The position numbers and the translations under genes were made by a program. The notes below the pieces were generated by a model. The model worked only from the letters and a program-made list of their open reading frames with translations. It had not been told where the DNA came from and searched no databases. A stretch of DNA of 48,617 nucleotides, taken from the sequence record SRR20825019_1657; one strand, written 5' to 3'. Positions 20,497 to 32,035 of the stretch are shown here, in pieces; position 1 is the stretch's first letter, and each line of letters begins with the position of its first letter.

Positions 20497-21699
20497 TTAC
20501 AGGCTCTCGAGCGCCCTCACCGGTTGCATCGAGGCCCCTTCCGCTGAATCGCCCCCGCCCGCGATCAGGATTCCCACGAGGTGACCATAAAAATACACCG
20601 TCACCGTGCCGCTCTGCGCCAGCGGATAGAGATCGACCGCTTCTCCGGCCAAAGCCCGACCGATCGACCACTGGCGGCCCTCAAAATAAAAGCCGCCTTT
20701 ATCCGAAACCCGCCGCGACACCGTGCCGGCCGGAGGCTCTGCCCGCACGGGCTGATCCAACCGACGGGGACTCGGACGATATCGAGCCGATGCCGAGCTA
20801 CGGCCCTCTTCTCCGTGCACCCGTGGACCATTCTGTCGATCCGCCCATTCCATTAATCGCCCGCGCCAACGCGCCAAAACCTCATGGGGAGGTCTCGCCA
20901 ATGGCGCAGCCTCATCGGCAGGATCAACGATCCGCCGACGCAACAACGCCCCCACATCACTCCCCGACGGCAATCCCCTGAGCTTCGTCTGCAATCCCGT
21001 CCAGACCGCATCCTGAGTGGGCGGTTGTTCGATCGAGCCAAATTCCACCGCTACCCCGACCTTTAAAATATCAACCATCAGGGGGGTATACTTCTGAGCC
21101 GGCATTCCCTTTGCCGCATTCTCCCGGACAGGGATCACCCACCGCAAACTCCGGGGCAAGCCATGCCGCTCAAATGACTTCCAAATGATTTCGCGACACC
21201 CCTCCTCTCCACGTTCAGCGAGCACCTCCGCCGCCAACACAAAGCCCGTGGCTCGATCTCGCAGCACGTAAGCCCGATGATTCCACCCACCCGACACCGT
21301 CACGGGCCCCATCTCCAATCCCCAACCGTCATTGGGCGCCGCCCGCCCCTCGGATTCGGCCGCTGCCATTCTCCGCCGCATCGCTTCAATCGTGGTAATC
21401 GCCGGCACGGGATCCACTCCTTCCGACTCCAACTCGCGACGCACCCGACCATTGGTCCAATCCGGGTGCACCGACAACAACTCGCCCACCCGCCGCTCAA
21501 TCTCAGGTGCCGTGCGACGGGGATGGGAGTGCGGCACCCGGTCCCGTTCCAACAATCCCAACGGCCCCTCAGCCCGAAAGCGGTTTAACCATTTATATCC
21601 CGTCTTCCGACTAATCCCGAAACGCGCGCACACTTGCGCAAAGGGCAATCGCCCCTCTTCTGCTAATTTAATAAAACGTTCACGCACGAGGAGTATCAA
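20497..21699 (-). CDS. IS481-family transposase-derived protein with degenerate catalytic core
   Basis: IS481 N-terminal HTH 'CARFGISRKTGYKWLNRF…PHSHPRRT', 'APNDGW', 'FERHGLPRSL', C-terminal 'YRPSPRRL…RRVSDKGGFYFEG'; DDE positions substituted. Confidence 0.75.
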   Translation of the reverse strand: MILLVRERFIKLAEEGRLPFAQVCARFGISRKTGYKWLNRFRAEGPLGLLERDRVPHSHPRRTAPEIERRVGELLSVHPDWTNGRVRRELESEGVDPVPAITTIEAMRRRMAAAESEGRAAPNDGWGLEMGPVTVSGGWNHRAYVLRDRATGFVLAAEVLAERGEEGCREIIWKSFERHGLPRSLRWVIPVRENAAKGMPAQKYTPLMVDILKVGVAVEFGSIEQPPTQDAVWTGLQTKLRGLPSGSDVGALLRRRIVDPADEAAPLARPPHEVLARWRGRLMEWADRQNGPRVHGEEGRSSASARYRPSPRRLDQPVRAEPPAGTVSRRVSDKGGFYFEGRQWSIGRALAGEAVDLYPLAQSGTVTVYFYGHLVGILIAGGGDSAEGASMQPVRALESL

Positions 21700-21835
21700 T
21701 AGAGGGAGCTACGTCCTCATTTCAATCTCTGCACGTAGCAATTTTGTCACAAACCGGTGTCGGCGGCGATGAGAGACACTGCGTTGCGTTCATCTCTTGA
21801 TCCTCAGCAACCGAAGAGACGACCCGAGGCATAAA

Positions 21836-21862
21836 GGTAGGGCACGACCGCTGGGCACGCCG
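21836..21862 (+). repeat. GTAG-type REP half-site
   Basis: ggtagggcacgaccgctgggcacgccg, 22/27 identical to 28593-28619. Confidence 0.55.
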
Positions 21863-22096
21863 CGGATGTTCGACAGGTTCGCCTCCTCCTGTCCGCACCG
21901 CCACCCTCTCACTCGTATCAATATAGAGTCTGGACGAATCCCCATAAAACCCTAGGAATATCCTCACCCCTTCGATAATAGCCCCTCCCCCGATTATCAT
22001 GCTTTCCTTCCGAGCAATCTCCGGAAACACCTCACACGCCATGAGTTTCAATGACTCTTTGCCTACTAAAAATACCGGCAAATATACAATTTATTG

Positions 22097-22115
22097 TGCC
22101 TAAACAACGATAGCT
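22097..22115 (+). other. attI-like integron site (or right half of a decayed attC)
   Basis: TGCCTAAACAAC-GATAGCT resembles attI1 GCCCTAAAACAAA-GTTRRRY; lies 10 bp before the first cassette ATG. Confidence 0.45.
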
Positions 22116-22125
22116 AAAATAATTT

Positions 22126-22431
22126 ATGCCCGGTCCAAAACTGAAATTTCCCAATACGAAAGATTATGCCGCGAAGCACATCGTTGTGCTTTGCCCCGCA
22201 GACCGAGTTCTCGGTCTTTACGAACAAGGAGCTGGCGTCAAAGCGCAGCGCATCGCGAAGAAAGTAAAAGCCTAGTTTACCGCAGAAGCGCAGAAGCAAG
22301 GATGGGCAGGTTGCGAGTTTGTGCCAGAGGTTCAGTCCACCCATGGAGCCGGAGCGATTCTACTGAATCCTCTTTCGACGAAGGTTACTGTGAATCAAAT
22401 TGTGATCCAGCTTCCCAAAGCAGAAAAGTAA
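22126..22431 (+). pseudogene. Cassette 1 ORF (101 codons) with one internal TAG
   Basis: MPGPKLKFPNTKDYAAKHIVVLCP…KKVKA*FTAEAQKQGWAGCEFVPEVQSTHGAGAILL…KAEK*; TAG at 22273-22275; ORF fills the space between att sites; absent from ORF track. Confidence 0.65.
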
Positions 22432-22433
22432 GA

Positions 22434-22494
22434 GGCTATCAAATCACCGCAGCCAACGGCGGCCAGCCGTCGCGTCTGAGTTCAAACGTTGGTT
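22434..22494 (+). other. attC site 1
   Basis: R'' GGCTATC, 5 bp, L'' ACCGCAGC, hairpin acggc-ggcca-gccgt, L' TCTGAGT, 6 bp, R' GTTGGTT. Confidence 0.7.
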
Positions 22495-22522
22495 TCAGAA
22501 AATTAAAGAACCGCACATTCCT

Positions 22523-23140
22523 ATGTCATTACCCGAAGCTAACATCAACAATACTGGATCGCTGTCGAAGTTCTTGGATGCGATCAAAACCGCAGGAGTG
22601 CCAGACCGAGTAACTTTCGAATTCCTCAAAACCATTGGCTTCAAGAGCAGCAATGATCGACCGATCATCGGGATCATGAAGGGAATCGGCTTCCTTGACG
22701 GCAATGGAACGCCGACTGAACTGTATAAAGCTTATCGCGGCCATGATGGTCCGAAGGTTCTCGCGAAGGCGCTTGAGAACTCCTACTCGGATATTTTTCT
22801 CGCGCACACGAAGGCGCAGACTCTTCCCCTTGATAAGCTGAAGGGCATCATCGCCAGCAAATCCAACAAAGGCGATGCAACGGTTGAGCGAATTGCACGA
22901 ACGTTTCAAATTCTTGCGAAGGCTGCGGATTTCTCCGAGGAACCTACAGTATCACACGAGAAGGAAGTAAACGGTGAGCCAGAAGAAACTCCGCCCCCCA
23001 CGCCACCGAATGTGGTTCAACCGACATTGCCAGGGCACACACCATCCTTTCATTACAACATCGAGATTCACTTGCCTACCACCACCGACGTCACCGTCTA
23101 CAATGCGATCTTTAAGAGCCTGAAAGAGAACCTACTCTGA
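22523..23140 (+). CDS. DUF5343-like protein
   Basis: 'AGVPDRVTFEFLKTIGFKSSNDRPIIGIMKGIGFLDGNGTPTELY', Pro-rich linker, C-terminal 'HYNIEIHLP…VYNAIFKSLKENL'. Confidence 0.75.
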   Translation: MSLPEANINNTGSLSKFLDAIKTAGVPDRVTFEFLKTIGFKSSNDRPIIGIMKGIGFLDGNGTPTELYKAYRGHDGPKVLAKALENSYSDIFLAHTKAQTLPLDKLKGIIASKSNKGDATVERIARTFQILAKAADFSEEPTVSHEKEVNGEPEETPPPTPPNVVQPTLPGHTPSFHYNIEIHLPTTTDVTVYNAIFKSLKENLL

Positions 23141-23730
23141 TGAAAGATTCTCTGAGTCAGACGAAAGACTTTGTATTCCGAGGGTTGTTGTCACTCGATT
23201 CCTTACAACAACTAGAGAGCAGTGGCGTTTACCTCCGCGATTCCCACAAACGGCTTGGCTCTGCCCTTGCTGAACTGACGTTTGCCGAGTTTAGTGCGCC
23301 AATCCGAGATGGCGCGGAGAAGATGGCCCGCCTTTACGTTGCGTTCTTCTGCTTCGAAAATTCAGTTCGAGAACTCGTAGCTCAGAAGCTTCGCGACGCC
23401 CACGGTGATACTTGGTGGGACACTAACGTGCCTCCGCTGATACGTAGCAAGGTGGAAAACCGAAAGAAACAAGAGGAGAAGAACAAGTGGCACCAACCAA
23501 GAAGCAGAGCCAACATCAACTACACAGACTTCGGGGATATGCCAGGCATAATCCTGAACAATTGGGCGCTGTTTGAAGACATGTTCGATTCTCAAGAGTG
23601 GGTGAAGGCTCGATTTGGTGACATGGAGAAGGCTCGTAACGTCATAGCCCACAACAATGTCCTTGAGGATGCAGAATTGGAGAGGATTCGCCTCTATCTA
23701 CAGGATTGGGCGCGTATAGCTGGTCTCTGA
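23140..23730 (+). CDS. Swt1-like HEPN domain protein (putative RNase)
   Basis: 'FENSVRELV…HGDTWW', 'YTDFGD…IILNNWALF', intact RxxxxH 'RNVIAH'; TGATG overlap with upstream gene. Confidence 0.8.
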   Translation: MKDSLSQTKDFVFRGLLSLDSLQQLESSGVYLRDSHKRLGSALAELTFAEFSAPIRDGAEKMARLYVAFFCFENSVRELVAQKLRDAHGDTWWDTNVPPLIRSKVENRKKQEEKNKWHQPRSRANINYTDFGDMPGIILNNWALFEDMFDSQEWVKARFGDMEKARNVIAHNNVLEDAELERIRLYLQDWARIAGL

Positions 23731-23740
23731 AGTGAAAGAA

Positions 23741-23800
23741 GCACAGCAAGACGTGGCACATCAACGCGCTTCTCCCGCGAGTGCACTTTGCACGTTAACC
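23741..23800 (+). other. attC site 2 (degenerate R'')
   Basis: GCACAGC-AAGAC-GTGGCAC…cgcg-cttctcc-cgcg…GTGCAC-tttgcac-GTTAACC, directly followed by the next start codon. Confidence 0.6.
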
Positions 23801-24313
23801 GTGAAGAAATACCTACTAATTCTATTCCCGCTTCTGTGCTTCGGTAAGTTACCCCCAACCCAAGCCGAAGCACAGGCGCTTTTTGATCGCGCTGTCGCCG
23901 CTGTGGACCACGCCGAAGCAGAATATATCTCCTTCGATTCCGCGACCGGTGACGAATCATTGAGTCCAATTTGGGAAAGTCATTCCCGGGACGAAATTAA
24001 TATGCTGATCCAATATTTCCGGCTCGAAGTGCCTCCACCTGAGAGACGGTTGGTCGATGGGGAGGAAGTCCTATCTTATAAAACATTCCGATGCGGTTGC
24101 AGGGGCGAATTCATCATCACTCTAAGAAAGGAGAACGAAAAGCTCTTGTCGTTTGGATTCACTCATGGAGAGCACATTGGTTCCGTTGAGATTCTGGAAA
24201 ATTCAGCGATCCGCATAGATCGGAATTCCGCCGCTCCGTTTTACTCCATGCTTGTTGAGGCAGTAAAAAAATTAGAGGCGAAAAAAGGCGTCAATGCGAC
24301 GCCCTTGCGGTAA
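23801..24313 (+). CDS. Exported hypothetical protein (cassette 3)
   Basis: GTG start MKKYLLILFPLLCFG signal-like peptide; CGCRG motif; 3' end runs into an attC-like sequence. Confidence 0.65.
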   Translation: MKKYLLILFPLLCFGKLPPTQAEAQALFDRAVAAVDHAEAEYISFDSATGDESLSPIWESHSRDEINMLIQYFRLEVPPPERRLVDGEEVLSYKTFRCGCRGEFIITLRKENEKLLSFGFTHGEHIGSVEILENSAIRIDRNSAAPFYSMLVEAVKKLEAKKGVNATPLR

Positions 24314-24359
24314 GCGAGGCATAATTCTCGGTAGCCCCCGCTAGCACCAAACGTCAGAA
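24277..24359 (+). other. attC site 3, strongly decayed
   Basis: ggcgaaaaaaggcgtcaatgcgacgcc … gcaccaaacGTCAGAA; both core sites deviate from consensus. Confidence 0.35.
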
Positions 24360-24545
24360 CTGACTACTTAACTGGACAATCGGGACCAAACGCTCACCAG
24401 GAACCCATTCCCTAAACAAGTCTCTCATTCGCAGCAGTGCGGATCTGTGCCCATCCGCGTTCATCGGCGGTTAAAAAACAGCCGGAGAGGAATTCACGAT
24501 TTCTCGGTCTTAATCTTAGACCATAAACACACTGCGTAAGCCTCC

Positions 24546-26102
24546 TCAAAGATAGTTACGCGTGGGCATTTCCCGATGCTTGGGCTGGGCTGAATTGGGC
24601 GCGAAGCCATCACTCGCCAAAGGGTAAGTCGATTTGCCCATGACCTCTCCCGTGAGCTTCACTCCGGGCTGGGTATTCACCAAACGGCGTGTGGTCGCAT
24701 TCCAATCGAGCAGCTTGCCGCGCGATTCCATGACGATGGATTGATGCGCCTCATCCTGAGCGAGATTGTGCAGCTCATCCGGATCGGCCTCCATGTCGTA
24801 AAGTTCGTCGTGATTGCTGCCGCCAAACATCGCTTCGGGATAGTGAACATAGCGCCACTTACTCCAGCGGATCGCCTTGCTCCACGGGTTCTCCGTGACG
24901 GCCACGGCCTTGCCTGTCGCAGCCTCGCCCGTGAGTTGCGGGGTGATGTCCACGCCGTCAGTGGTTTCAAATCCTTCGACTCCGCAGAGCGAGGCTAGGG
25001 TCGGCGCCATGTCGATATTCTCGATCAGCCCATCATGCACCGCGCCTTGCGGCGTCAGACCGGGCACACGCCAGATCATTGGCACGCGGCAGACCGCATC
25101 CGAACAGATCCCGGGGGCCTTCTCCTGAATACCATGCATCCCGTGATACGCGCCGTGATCGCTGCCGTAGATCACAATCGTATCGTCCTCCAAGCCGTGC
25201 TCGCGCAGAAATTTGAGCAACCGGCCGACGACATCATCCATCTGCGTTACGCAGGCGAGCGTGCCGCGCCAGGCGCGACGAGCGCAGTCGTGAAACGTAT
25301 CACCCGGCTTCGCCTGTTCCCATTCCATCGCGCGGAACCGTTTCCACATCTCCTGAAAATGCGGCGGACGGCCCGTCGGTTCACGATCCACCGTCGGCGG
25401 CAGGGGCAGATCAGCCGGATACCTGTCCAAAAATTCCTGCTGCGGAATCAGCGGATGATGCGGGCGCTGCAGCGCGATCTGAATACAGAACGGTTTATCA
25501 ATATCTTCGGCGATAAACTCCGTGGCCTTGCGCTCCGCCCAGCGCTCCATCGTGTGTTCGTAGGGTAGCTTCGACGGACAGGCATCGTTCGGGAGCGACG
25601 AACCGTAAGGACTGTTGTAGTTGCGCCAGCTGTCCTCCAAATCGCGCAGCCCGAGACTCGTGAGCTCATCAAGATAGTCGGATTTACCAATTTCCCCATC
25701 AGCGGTTTCATACGAATCGCCGAAGGTGTCCACATCGTCGGCGATCCAGTTGCGCGGCGAGTTGGGTAAATGCAATTTTCCGTAGGCCGCCGTGCGATAT
25801 CCCGCCGTCTTGAAGTGACGAAACAGATTAGGCAGGCCCGGTTTCACCGGTCCGGACAGACCGTAGTAACCGTGATTCTGACAATACTGTCCGCTCAAGA
25901 TGCTCACGCGACTGGGCGTGCAAATCGGATTCTGACAATACGCATTCGAAAACCGCACGCCTTCCGCCGCGAGCCCGTCGATATGCGGCGTTTGCACTCC
26001 ATACCGATCCCCCGCGCACCCCATCCAATCGGCATGATGCTGGTCAGCCAGAATCATGAGCACATTACGACGACGCGGAGCAGGGGTAGAATCAGCAGAC
26101 AT
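24546..26102 (-). CDS. Sulfatase (formylglycine-dependent, S1)
   Basis: ILADQH, CTPSR, YGKLH, SDHG motifs. Confidence 0.93.
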   Translation of the reverse strand: MSADSTPAPRRRNVLMILADQHHADWMGCAGDRYGVQTPHIDGLAAEGVRFSNAYCQNPICTPSRVSILSGQYCQNHGYYGLSGPVKPGLPNLFRHFKTAGYRTAAYGKLHLPNSPRNWIADDVDTFGDSYETADGEIGKSDYLDELTSLGLRDLEDSWRNYNSPYGSSLPNDACPSKLPYEHTMERWAERKATEFIAEDIDKPFCIQIALQRPHHPLIPQQEFLDRYPADLPLPPTVDREPTGRPPHFQEMWKRFRAMEWEQAKPGDTFHDCARRAWRGTLACVTQMDDVVGRLLKFLREHGLEDDTIVIYGSDHGAYHGMHGIQEKAPGICSDAVCRVPMIWRVPGLTPQGAVHDGLIENIDMAPTLASLCGVEGFETTDGVDITPQLTGEAATGKAVAVTENPWSKAIRWSKWRYVHYPEAMFGGSNHDELYDMEADPDELHNLAQDEAHQSIVMESRGKLLDWNATTRRLVNTQPGVKLTGEVMGKSTYPLASDGFAPNSAQPKHREMPTRNYL

Positions 26103-31198: not shown

Positions 31199-32035
31199 AT
31201 GAAGAAATCCTCCGAACTTTCCGTTTTAATTGCAGGCAGCGGGGCCGTGCGTGCCCACCCCAACCGCGGGGGGCCAGCATTCATCGTAACAATCGATGGA
31301 CAGAAGCTGCTCTTCGATTGCGGACGCTGTGCCGTGCACAATGTCTCAAGATTTGGTGTTCCGGTGGAAACGGTTGATAAAACTTTTATCACGCATCTGC
31401 ATTTTGATCATATTTGCGACCTACCACTGCTTCTTCTGCTCTCTTGGAACAATGGGCGCAAGACCCCCATGCCGATTTATGGTCCCGAAGGTATCGCCAA
31501 CTTTTTGGAAAAGGGAATCCACCAAGCCTACGATCACGACATCAAGAGTCGTGCCGGTCACGGCAAGGATGTCTCTCTCCTCGATTGGAATGTCACCGAA
31601 TTGACACAAGAGGGTGTCATCATCGAAACCGACACGTATAAAATCGATACCCTCATCACGGAGCATGGCGGCCTGCTCAACTTCAATTACCGCATCACCA
31701 CCGCCGAAAAGATCATCGTCGTCATGAGCGATTCGGAATACGATGAGCGTATTATCGAATTCTGCCGCGACGCCGATCTCGTCCTGATCGAATGCTCGGG
31801 GACCCAGGAATTTCTCGATACCGTGCCATGGGGCTCGTGGCATATGATTCCGGAACAAATCGGCGAAATCATGAAAAAAGCCGGAGCGAAGAAAGTCGTT
31901 CTCAAGCATCTCGTGATCGAAAGCTTTCGCGACAATGACATGAGCATCTCCGAGGGAATGGCGGCGACCGCCCAAAAGATTTACTCCGAGGGCAAATGTA
32001 TCGCGGCGACCGATGGCATGAAAATCGAACTCTGA
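31199..32035 (+). CDS. MBL-fold hydrolase (RNase Z/AtsA-like)
   Basis: FDCG, THLHFDH, 'ADLVLIEC', 'VVLKHL'. Confidence 0.87.
   Translation: MKKSSELSVLIAGSGAVRAHPNRGGPAFIVTIDGQKLLFDCGRCAVHNVSRFGVPVETVDKTFITHLHFDHICDLPLLLLLSWNNGRKTPMPIYGPEGIANFLEKGIHQAYDHDIKSRAGHGKDVSLLDWNVTELTQEGVIIETDTYKIDTLITEHGGLLNFNYRITTAEKIIVVMSDSEYDERIIEFCRDADLVLIECSGTQEFLDTVPWGSWHMIPEQIGEIMKKAGAKKVVLKHLVIESFRDNDMSISEGMAATAQKIYSEGKCIAATDGMKIEL

Follow-up and report, generated by a model that had tools for sequence, protein, structure and literature searches.

The DNA stretch of sequence record SRR20825019_1657 analysed here (48,617 nucleotides, referred to as the window) carries on its plus strand two adjacent genes, A and B, at positions 22,523 to 23,730. 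Together they are an intact new copy of PDC-M34, a named candidate system catalogued in PADLOC. The A protein matches the PADLOC-DB v2 profile PDC-M34A (PDLC04589) with an E-value of 1.9e-63, its residues 1-204 aligning to profile positions 1-207 of 208, and the B protein matches PDC-M34B (PDLC04592) with an E-value of 1.2e-66, its residues 3-195 being aligned to positions 3-191 of a profile of 192. A is followed by B on the same strand, the adjacency that we take to be the PADLOC system rule for PDC-M34. Both families are shared with the catalogue entry end to end, as are adjacency, strand and A-then-B order, and no structural difference is apparent. A first-pass annotation of the window had presented the pair as undescribed; because both proteins match PDC-M34, this claim fails. 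Its remark that no characterisation of the pair is known appears to hold: full-text literature searches by the candidate name and by both domain names yielded no paper in which the PDC-M34 pair is tested.

PDC-M34 is one of 145 untested candidates of Payne et al. (bioRxiv 10.1101/2024.01.29.577857). According to that paper, the candidates were derived from genes lying inside BREX, DISARM or type I restriction-modification (R-M) systems; they were added to PADLOC. Whereas the candidates are defined by this embedding, the present copy does not lie inside a BREX, DISARM or R-M locus. In their survey of HEPN proteins, Anantharaman et al. (PMC3710099) report catalytically active bacterial members of the Swt1/Abi2 clade in R-M contexts, and a DUF5343 partner is not mentioned in its Swt1 passages. 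As a calibration of what such a catalogue entry may be worth, the section on candidate systems in an independent study (PMC12881386) lists protection of E. coli by four out of eight other PADLOC candidates.

The protein encoded by gene B belongs to the Pfam family HEPN_Swt1 (PF18731), which covers residues 68-192 (E-value 1.2e-12; 48.6 bits against a gathering cut-off of 27.5). The motif RNVIAH, read as intact in the first-pass annotation, is confirmed as residues R166 to H171. Both R166 and H171 are kept in 78 of the 79 aligned B proteins, the exception being a split gene in locus L011, and the residues E73, N74 and R77 of the ENSVR motif in the first long HEPN helix are kept in all 79. The structural model of B (mean predicted local distance difference test, pLDDT, 83.4) displays an all-helical HEPN fold. 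In an exhaustive structural alignment (VIA), the best solved fold is AbiF bound to its non-coding RNA (8vz6_B; Z 9.1, rmsd 3.5, 136 aligned residues), followed by the C-terminal domain of yeast Swt1 (4pqz; Z 7.2, 105 aligned residues), while the HEPN domains of Cas13, Csm6, AbiA, HepT and sacsin follow with Z of 5-6.4. This fold ranking agrees with the Pfam call in placing B within the Abi2/Swt1 clade. From its sequence, B is hence predicted to be an HEPN ribonuclease (RNase) of the Swt1/Abi2 clade, which includes AbiD and AbiF, and all catalytic signature residues are present.

The protein encoded by gene A is assigned to the Pfam family DUF5343 (PF17278; residues 9-140, E-value 7.8e-37, 127.1 bits against a gathering cut-off of 27). 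DUF5343 is its sole Pfam family, and a nucleotidyltransferase family was not matched at E <= 1. The three-part layout proposed in the first-pass annotation (a DUF5343-like N-terminal domain, a linker and a C-terminal module) is supported by Pfam, by an alignment of 38 homologous sequences and by an AlphaFold2 model. In this alignment, the linker (residues ~140-173) contains zero conserved columns, and the C-terminal stretch FHYNIxIHLPTTTDxTVYNAIFKSLKExLL is nearly invariant, Y193, N194 and F197 being among the invariant positions of A. Also nearly invariant across phyla is the recognition-helix region of the N-terminal domain, KSSNDRxxIxxxKxxGF...G.PT. The model has a mean pLDDT of 79.7; values fall below 50 at residues 140-173, and the helix at the end of the protein (residues 190-204) is modelled with confidence. 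Searches with the last 35 residues alone gave no Pfam family match, and a protein atlas search returned DUF5343 clusters only. No NCBIfam family was found for either A or B; profile searches of PDB sequences gave no solved relative of either protein, and Foldseek comparison of both models with the PDB gave no match at E <= 0.001.

In VIA alignments, residues 7-76 of A resemble winged helix-turn-helix (wHTH) proteins, namely TubR (Z 5.4), FtsK-gamma (Z 5.3) and MarR-type proteins (Z 4.3-5.3). The longer range of residues 1-148 superposes weakly, and without sequence similarity, on 3bhw (Z 5.8, 131 aligned residues), the recognition regions of FokI (Z 5.8) and N.BspD6I (Z 5.6), SspB (Z 5.4) and the BREX accessory protein BrxA of the DUF1819 family (7zge; Z 5.0, 139 aligned residues). 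As Z values of this size may reflect only a common helical arrangement, binding of nucleic acids by A is to be considered a lead rather than a finding.

Conservation of the C-terminus of A is conservation of protein. A codon-position test was applied to the C-terminal 29 residues in 78 unique sequences, with entropy expressed in bits. At 15 of the 29 codons, the encoded residue agrees in 95% or more of the sequences, and in these 15 codons the mean entropy is 1.44 bits at third positions, which is near saturation, as compared to 0.26 and 0.07 bits at first and second positions. The 29-residue strand-helix C-terminus of A is under strong protein-level purifying selection, an observation that is new beyond the catalogue entry. 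As a whole, A evolves faster than B: the best identities in a clustered protein database are 86% for A and 97% for B.

The same clustered database contains 452 detectable relatives of A and 171 of B. A profile search of 1.84 billion representatives (clusters at 50% identity) assigns 2,881 clusters to the A family at E <= 1e-3 and 469 at E <= 1e-30. The best 150 representatives are almost all 200-230 amino acids long and matched end to end, and none exceeds 348 amino acids. For the analysis of synteny, 322 A loci were found (one genome per species), of which the best 80 were kept. A homologue of B lies directly 3' of A on the same strand in 78 of these 80 loci, and the remaining two loci end 136 and 53 nucleotides past A. 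The pairing is strict. The 80 loci span Planctomycetota, groups of the candidate phyla radiation, an archaeon, Chloroflexota, Bacteroidota, Pseudomonadota, Bacillota and Acidobacteriota.

Coupling of the two reading frames is likewise widespread. In the window, base 23140 is common to the stop codon of A and the start codon of B (TGATG, an overlap of one nucleotide on the same strand), just as the first-pass annotation had stated. The A and B frames overlap in 52 of the 78 paired loci (25 at -4 and 21 at -8), are separated by 0-12 nucleotides in 25, and by 41 nucleotides in one; two large apparent overlaps are artefacts of taking the first possible start. Proteins in which A and B are fused were not found at E <= 0.001 among proteins of 360-2000 amino acids, which is weak evidence. 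Neither the flanks of the pair in the window nor the open reading frame (ORF) following it has a match in any of the 80 loci, which have only the two genes in common. As the flanks are not shared among loci, the mobile unit is the pair itself, and horizontal acquisition as a unit of exactly two genes is the best explanation.

Two further loci with gene A were found in IMG/VR. In one of these contigs (L081:2341-8783) the pair has a Mob_Pre relaxase and a DUF6076 protein on one side and a large serine recombinase on the other, and seems to be carried as cargo by an integrative or mobilisable element of small size. Decaying copies are seen as well: B is split into two frames in L011 (8582-9167), A lacks the C-terminal module in L087 (1486-2010), and A is split into frames of 79 and 158 amino acids in L101 (1270-1901).

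A-type proteins are also found with partners other than B. A Pfam search for DUF5343 covered 401 genomes in each of three phyla (1203 genomes), which were drawn around three pair-bearing seed genomes. DUF5343 is present in 12, 7 and 7 of them (26 in total), or in 11, 6 and 6 of 400 when the seeds are subtracted, a patchy distribution. The partners in the 26 positive genomes (Table 1) include Swt1-type HEPN proteins, other HEPN or HEPN-like proteins and a protein with the fold of a restriction endonuclease (REase). The strand-helix C-terminus is retained in all of these pairings, those with alternative partners included. The nuclease next to A is thus exchanged while A itself stays the same, which is the other observation new beyond the catalogue entry. 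Defence and toxin-antitoxin (TA) modules typically combine an unchanging regulator with nuclease effectors that can be swapped.

For the genomic context of the pair, 150 neighbour proteins were scanned, six from each of 25 loci and always those encoded closest to the pair, with specific PADLOC matches counted at E <= 1e-10. Specific matches to defence systems or candidates occur within three genes of the pair in 6 of the 25 loci (Table 1), and weaker or accessory matches in two further loci, L012 (PDC-M55C) and L032 (WYL). Most of the 150 neighbour proteins are housekeeping proteins, and the remaining PADLOC matches are generic ABC-ATPases or methyltransferases (MTases). As these neighbours were counted without a background control, the signal from the 25 loci is only suggestive. 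In the Mucilaginibacter locus L032 (5252-7932), a WYL/WCX regulator and an RtcB RNA ligase are encoded directly 5' of the pair; this placement of an RNA-repair gene beside a predicted RNase is suggestive, and it is a single case.

Table 1. Features of the PDC-M34 pair in the window, specific defence-related neighbours of the pair in related loci, and partners of A-type proteins in the 26 DUF5343-positive genomes.
Feature	Position or locus	Strand	Genomes	Basis and remarks
Gene A (PDC-M34A)	22523..23140	+		205 aa; ORF call, Pfam, PADLOC, AlphaFold2 model
DUF5343 domain, residues 9-140 of A	22547..22942	+		Pfam range; helical, winged-helix-like core at residues 7-76
Acidic/Pro-rich linker, residues 141-173 of A	22943..23041	+		hypervariable, predicted disordered
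C-terminal strand-helix module, residues 175-205 of A, ...FHYNIEIHLPTTTDVTVYNAIFKSLKENLL	23045..23137	+		near-invariance in alignment
TGATG stop/start overlap (translational coupling)	23138..23142	+		A stop TGA 23138-23140, B start ATG 23140-23142
Gene B (PDC-M34B)	23140..23730	+		196 aa; Swt1/Abi2-clade HEPN, predicted RNase effector
ENSVR motif (E73, N74, R77), first long HEPN helix of B	23356..23370	+		alignment
Rx4H predicted catalytic motif RNVIAH (R166-H171) of B	23635..23652	+		sequence
Low-GC islet carrying the pair	~21900..24600	.		GC scan
Neighbour PDC-S32/AbiJ-like	L002			
Neighbour spbK-like TIR	L005			
Neighbour type II MTase	L007			
Neighbour PDC-S45	L020			
Neighbour AbiGi	L021			
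Second PADLOC candidate pair, PDC-M43A + PDC-M43B	L033:9293-11049			immediately 3' of the PDC-M34 pair
Swt1-HEPN partner			13/26	
Hypoth_Ymh HEPN partner	L097:1462-2647	+	1/26	also matches PD-Lambda-3_B and Aga_HEPN models
Weak DUF4145-like partner	one is L102:690-1926	-	2/26	E 3.5e-4 and 2.8e-3, below cut-off; A split in one
180-aa protein with RNECAH, no family	L107:1489-2633	+	1/26	
DpnII-MboI REase-fold partner	L091:728-1911	-	1/26	
DUF5343-TPR fusions, 376-559 aa	L092-L096		5/26	five Bacteroidota genomes; TPR repeats C-terminal
Partner not resolved			3/26	

The islet in which the pair resides (about 2.5 kb) has a GC content of 0.45-0.53, as compared to approximately 0.58-0.64 in the flanks. 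The neighbours in the window are ordinary chromosomal genes, encoding a TonB-dependent receptor, a PhoD-like phosphatase, sulfatases and an IS481-like remnant. The latter is an ORF of 400 amino acids bordering the islet (20497-21699, minus strand), with IS481-type helix-turn-helix and leucine-zipper domains within its first ~105 residues; a transposase catalytic domain was not matched, and the ORF possibly represents a transposase that is degenerate or domesticated. The ORF at 21722-22078 (minus strand) has no Pfam match at E <= 1. Upstream of gene A, a frame of 99 codons (22126-22422, plus strand) is interrupted by a single in-frame TAG at 22273-22275. With the TAG read as X it gives no Pfam match at E <= 1, and it possibly represents a gene of this low-GC islet that has decayed. 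Immediately after gene B follows an ORF at 23732-24313 (plus strand), the true start of which is likely at ~23801, and which has a signal-peptide-like N-terminus (KKYLLILFPLLCFG...). For the frame 23801-24310, neither Pfam (E <= 1) nor PADLOC nor NCBIfam gave a family match; since it is also absent from 80 of 80 related loci, this ORF is not part of the system. Farther downstream, a protein with metallo-beta-lactamase fold (31199-32035, plus strand) matches the Anti-Pycsar protein Apyc1 below threshold (29.3 bits, cut-off 50) and is most likely an ordinary metallo-beta-lactamase hydrolase.

The first-pass annotation had further placed the pair in a single attC-bounded gene cassette of an integron array, for which the compactness of the pair, its lower GC content and the short flanking frames, one of them with a stop, might speak. 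The attC core consensus consists of R'' (RYYYAAC) and R' (GTTRRRY), and the window was scanned on both strands for such pairs 50-150 nucleotides apart. Four attC-like pairs were found in the 48.6 kb, compared to 6.8 +/- 3.8 in shuffled sequences; none lies within 21500-24700, and none in the window has at least 15 of 25 complementary end bases. As single-stranded DNA, the flanks are not unusually well folded relative to shuffled sequence, with z values of -0.95 (22400-22522), -2.04 (23725-23850) and +0.89 (24305-24450, after the next ORF). An integrase family was not found among the 37 ORFs of the window that were scanned against Pfam, and the neighbours are ordinary chromosomal genes. The 25 neighbour-scanned loci lie in unrelated contexts, with an integrase-type neighbour in L001 only, although attC sites were not sought there. 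A cassette is thus very improbable and the earlier claim is not upheld. The same annotation had described a neighbouring cassette 1 carrying a stop, by which the frame at 22126-22422 is probably meant; the stop is present, and the status as a cassette lacks support.

Several characterised systems invite comparison with the pair. Type II antitoxins such as Phd, CcdA and MazE combine an N-terminal DNA-binding domain with a disordered C-terminal toxin-binding tail. A likewise is encoded upstream, in a frame overlapping that of its partner, and has a wHTH-like N-terminal domain, a disordered linker and a short conserved C-terminus; it differs from these classical antitoxins in that its C-terminal element is near-invariant across effector families and in that no conserved operator was found upstream in the joint search of the 78 loci. 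The HEPN-MNT systems (HepT-MntA, type II/VII TA) share with the pair the two-gene order, with the regulator first and an Rx4H HEPN protein second, and HepT toxins display a weak fold likeness to B (7ae2, Z 5.9; 8xdj, Z 5.6; 5yep, Z 5.5). However, their HEPN proteins belong to a different clade, and A has no nucleotidyltransferase domain, for which reason neutralisation of the AMPylation type is not expected.

AbiF and AbiD (Abi2) stand closer, as they share the Swt1/Abi2 clade of HEPN with B and are small mobile modules as well. According to the AbiF section of a 2026 review (PMC13064643), AbiF is a type III TA and abortive-infection (Abi) system in which a non-coding RNA encoded upstream physically blocks the HEPN active site. 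This RNA antitoxin of AbiF and AbiD is listed as Rfam RF03085 in the corresponding passage of PMC12165695. The neutraliser of AbiF and the putative one of B, i.e. A, are both encoded immediately upstream. In contrast to AbiF, which is held by a non-coding RNA, the upstream element here is a protein of 205 amino acids under protein-level selection, with no Rfam match.

Based on this dataset, we hypothesize with moderate confidence that the pair is a TA-like abortive-infection module in which A gates the predicted RNase B. The first-pass annotation had proposed a sensor or antitoxin gating an HEPN RNase, and of this proposal the gating role is retained as the best reading: we infer it from its fit with all findings, including the observed identities, the strict synteny, the intact motifs, the protein-level selection that acts on the C-terminal peptide and the exchange of effector partners. 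In an uninfected cell, A would keep the RNase B inactive, probably by direct binding and perhaps by docking of the tethered C-terminal peptide on an HEPN dimer. A phage-derived cue, acting via the DUF5343 domain or through loss of a labile A, would then free B, and the freed B would cleave cellular and phage RNA, by which the infected cell would be arrested. RNase activity and toxicity of B, neutralisation by A, the trigger and the anti-phage effect are all predicted parts of this scheme. The position of A as the upstream gene and its combination of a wHTH-like domain with a disordered linker are antitoxin-like traits. The disordered tether together with an invariant terminal peptide suggests an element for docking on the HEPN dimer or for dimerisation of A with itself. 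The invariant wHTH-like surface, with no operator found to be shared among the upstream regions, suggests that A reads a conserved cue and not only its own promoter. A prediction of the A and B complex (score 0.01, mark 0.34), run without own alignments, counts neither for nor against binding.

A number of observations weigh against an antitoxin of this kind with a role in defence. Partners from several HEPN families, and one with an REase fold, are accompanied by one and the same C-terminal peptide; this would not be expected for a toxin-specific antitoxin peptide, and the peptide may instead be a dimerisation module or have some other common function. An operator-like motif common to the 78 upstream regions was not found beyond AT-rich k-mers, in a search that spans the loci jointly and that locus-specific operators would escape; taken with the invariant wHTH-like region, this argues against classical operator-specific autorepression. 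The fold matches of A are middling (Z <= 5.8). A tblastn search with gene A at E <= 1e-5 gave no match in 72,556 plasmids or 50,697 phage records, and in 17 of the 25 scanned loci the six nearest genes contain no PADLOC match beyond a generic ABC-ATPase (mad3).

The main rival, which the data do not separate from inhibition by A, is that A acts as a positive sensor or targeting subunit. Its winged-helix-like surface would recognise a nucleic-acid or protein cue of phage or host and recruit or activate B, and B alone would be inert or non-toxic. Both the near-invariance of the recognition-helix region across phyla and the upstream regions, in which no shared operator was found, are consistent with a sensor. 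So are the use of one A architecture with at least five effector types, the fusions of DUF5343 to tetratricopeptide repeats (TPR) in 5 of the 12 DUF5343-positive Bacteroidota genomes, as in sensor-regulator proteins, and the whole-domain likeness of DUF5343 to the DNA-recognition modules of the defence proteins FokI, N.BspD6I, SspB and BrxA (Z 5.0-5.8). These fold matches are weak, however, while gene order, frame overlap, the disordered linker and the faster evolution of A would fit a labile inhibitor equally well, and control of AbiF, the closest HEPN relative that has been characterised, works through inhibition and not through activation. On balance, we consider activation by A rather unlikely. 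A role without phage defence, be it as a selfish or stress-response TA (addiction, persistence) or as a regulator of RNA turnover, appears distinctly less probable. It would suit the 17 of 25 loci amid housekeeping genes, the decaying copies (B split in L011, A truncated in L087, A split in G460) and the circumstance that the PDC status rests only on guilt-by-embedding. Yet A had no plasmid match, so that plasmid addiction is not indicated, the family came to light through its embedding in BREX, DISARM or type I R-M loci, defence genes or candidates are present among the neighbours (AbiGi, PDC-S32, PDC-S45, the spbK-like TIR, an MTase, PDC-M43AB), and the related HEPN systems AbiD and AbiF defend against phage.

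An RNA antitoxin in the DNA preceding B, as in type III systems, was also considered, with the 3' end of gene A as the antitoxin and the A reading frame as secondary. The nearest solved fold of B is AbiF bound to an RNA encoded upstream, and blastn picks up the last ~90 nucleotides of gene A even in distant loci. Against this, the 15 most conserved codons are nearly fixed at positions 1-2 and nearly saturated at position 3, Rfam gives no match at E <= 1 within 21500-24700, and A is conserved as a protein over its full length, in a family of 2,881 representative clusters. On the grounds of the near-saturation of third positions and the lacking Rfam match, an AbiF-style RNA antitoxin is rejected as extremely improbable.

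Returning to gating of B by A, a more far-reaching and unlikely version may be formulated, in which DUF5343 A proteins are a widespread, universal protein gatekeeper of HEPN nucleases. The C-terminal peptide would plug or clamp the composite active site, in likeness to the non-coding RNA that blocks the HEPN active site of AbiF, and the winged-helix-like domain would read a conserved phage nucleic-acid or protein cue that releases the plug. One such combination of sensor and plug would then have come to serve no fewer than four HEPN families as well as an REase-fold nuclease.

Taken alone, the locus is ordinary, as it adds a further copy to a candidate that is already catalogued. The family, on the other hand, is broad, small (1.2 kb) and uncharacterised, and is therefore worth a test at the bench, for which the invariant C-terminal peptide of 29 residues and the exchange of effector partners provide concrete experimental handles. 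The AbiF/Swt1 clade of HEPN is the clade from which Cas13 is thought to derive, as outlined in the pertinent passage of PMC12165695. Control of this HEPN clade by a protein partner, if shown, would add another control logic beside the RNA of AbiF.

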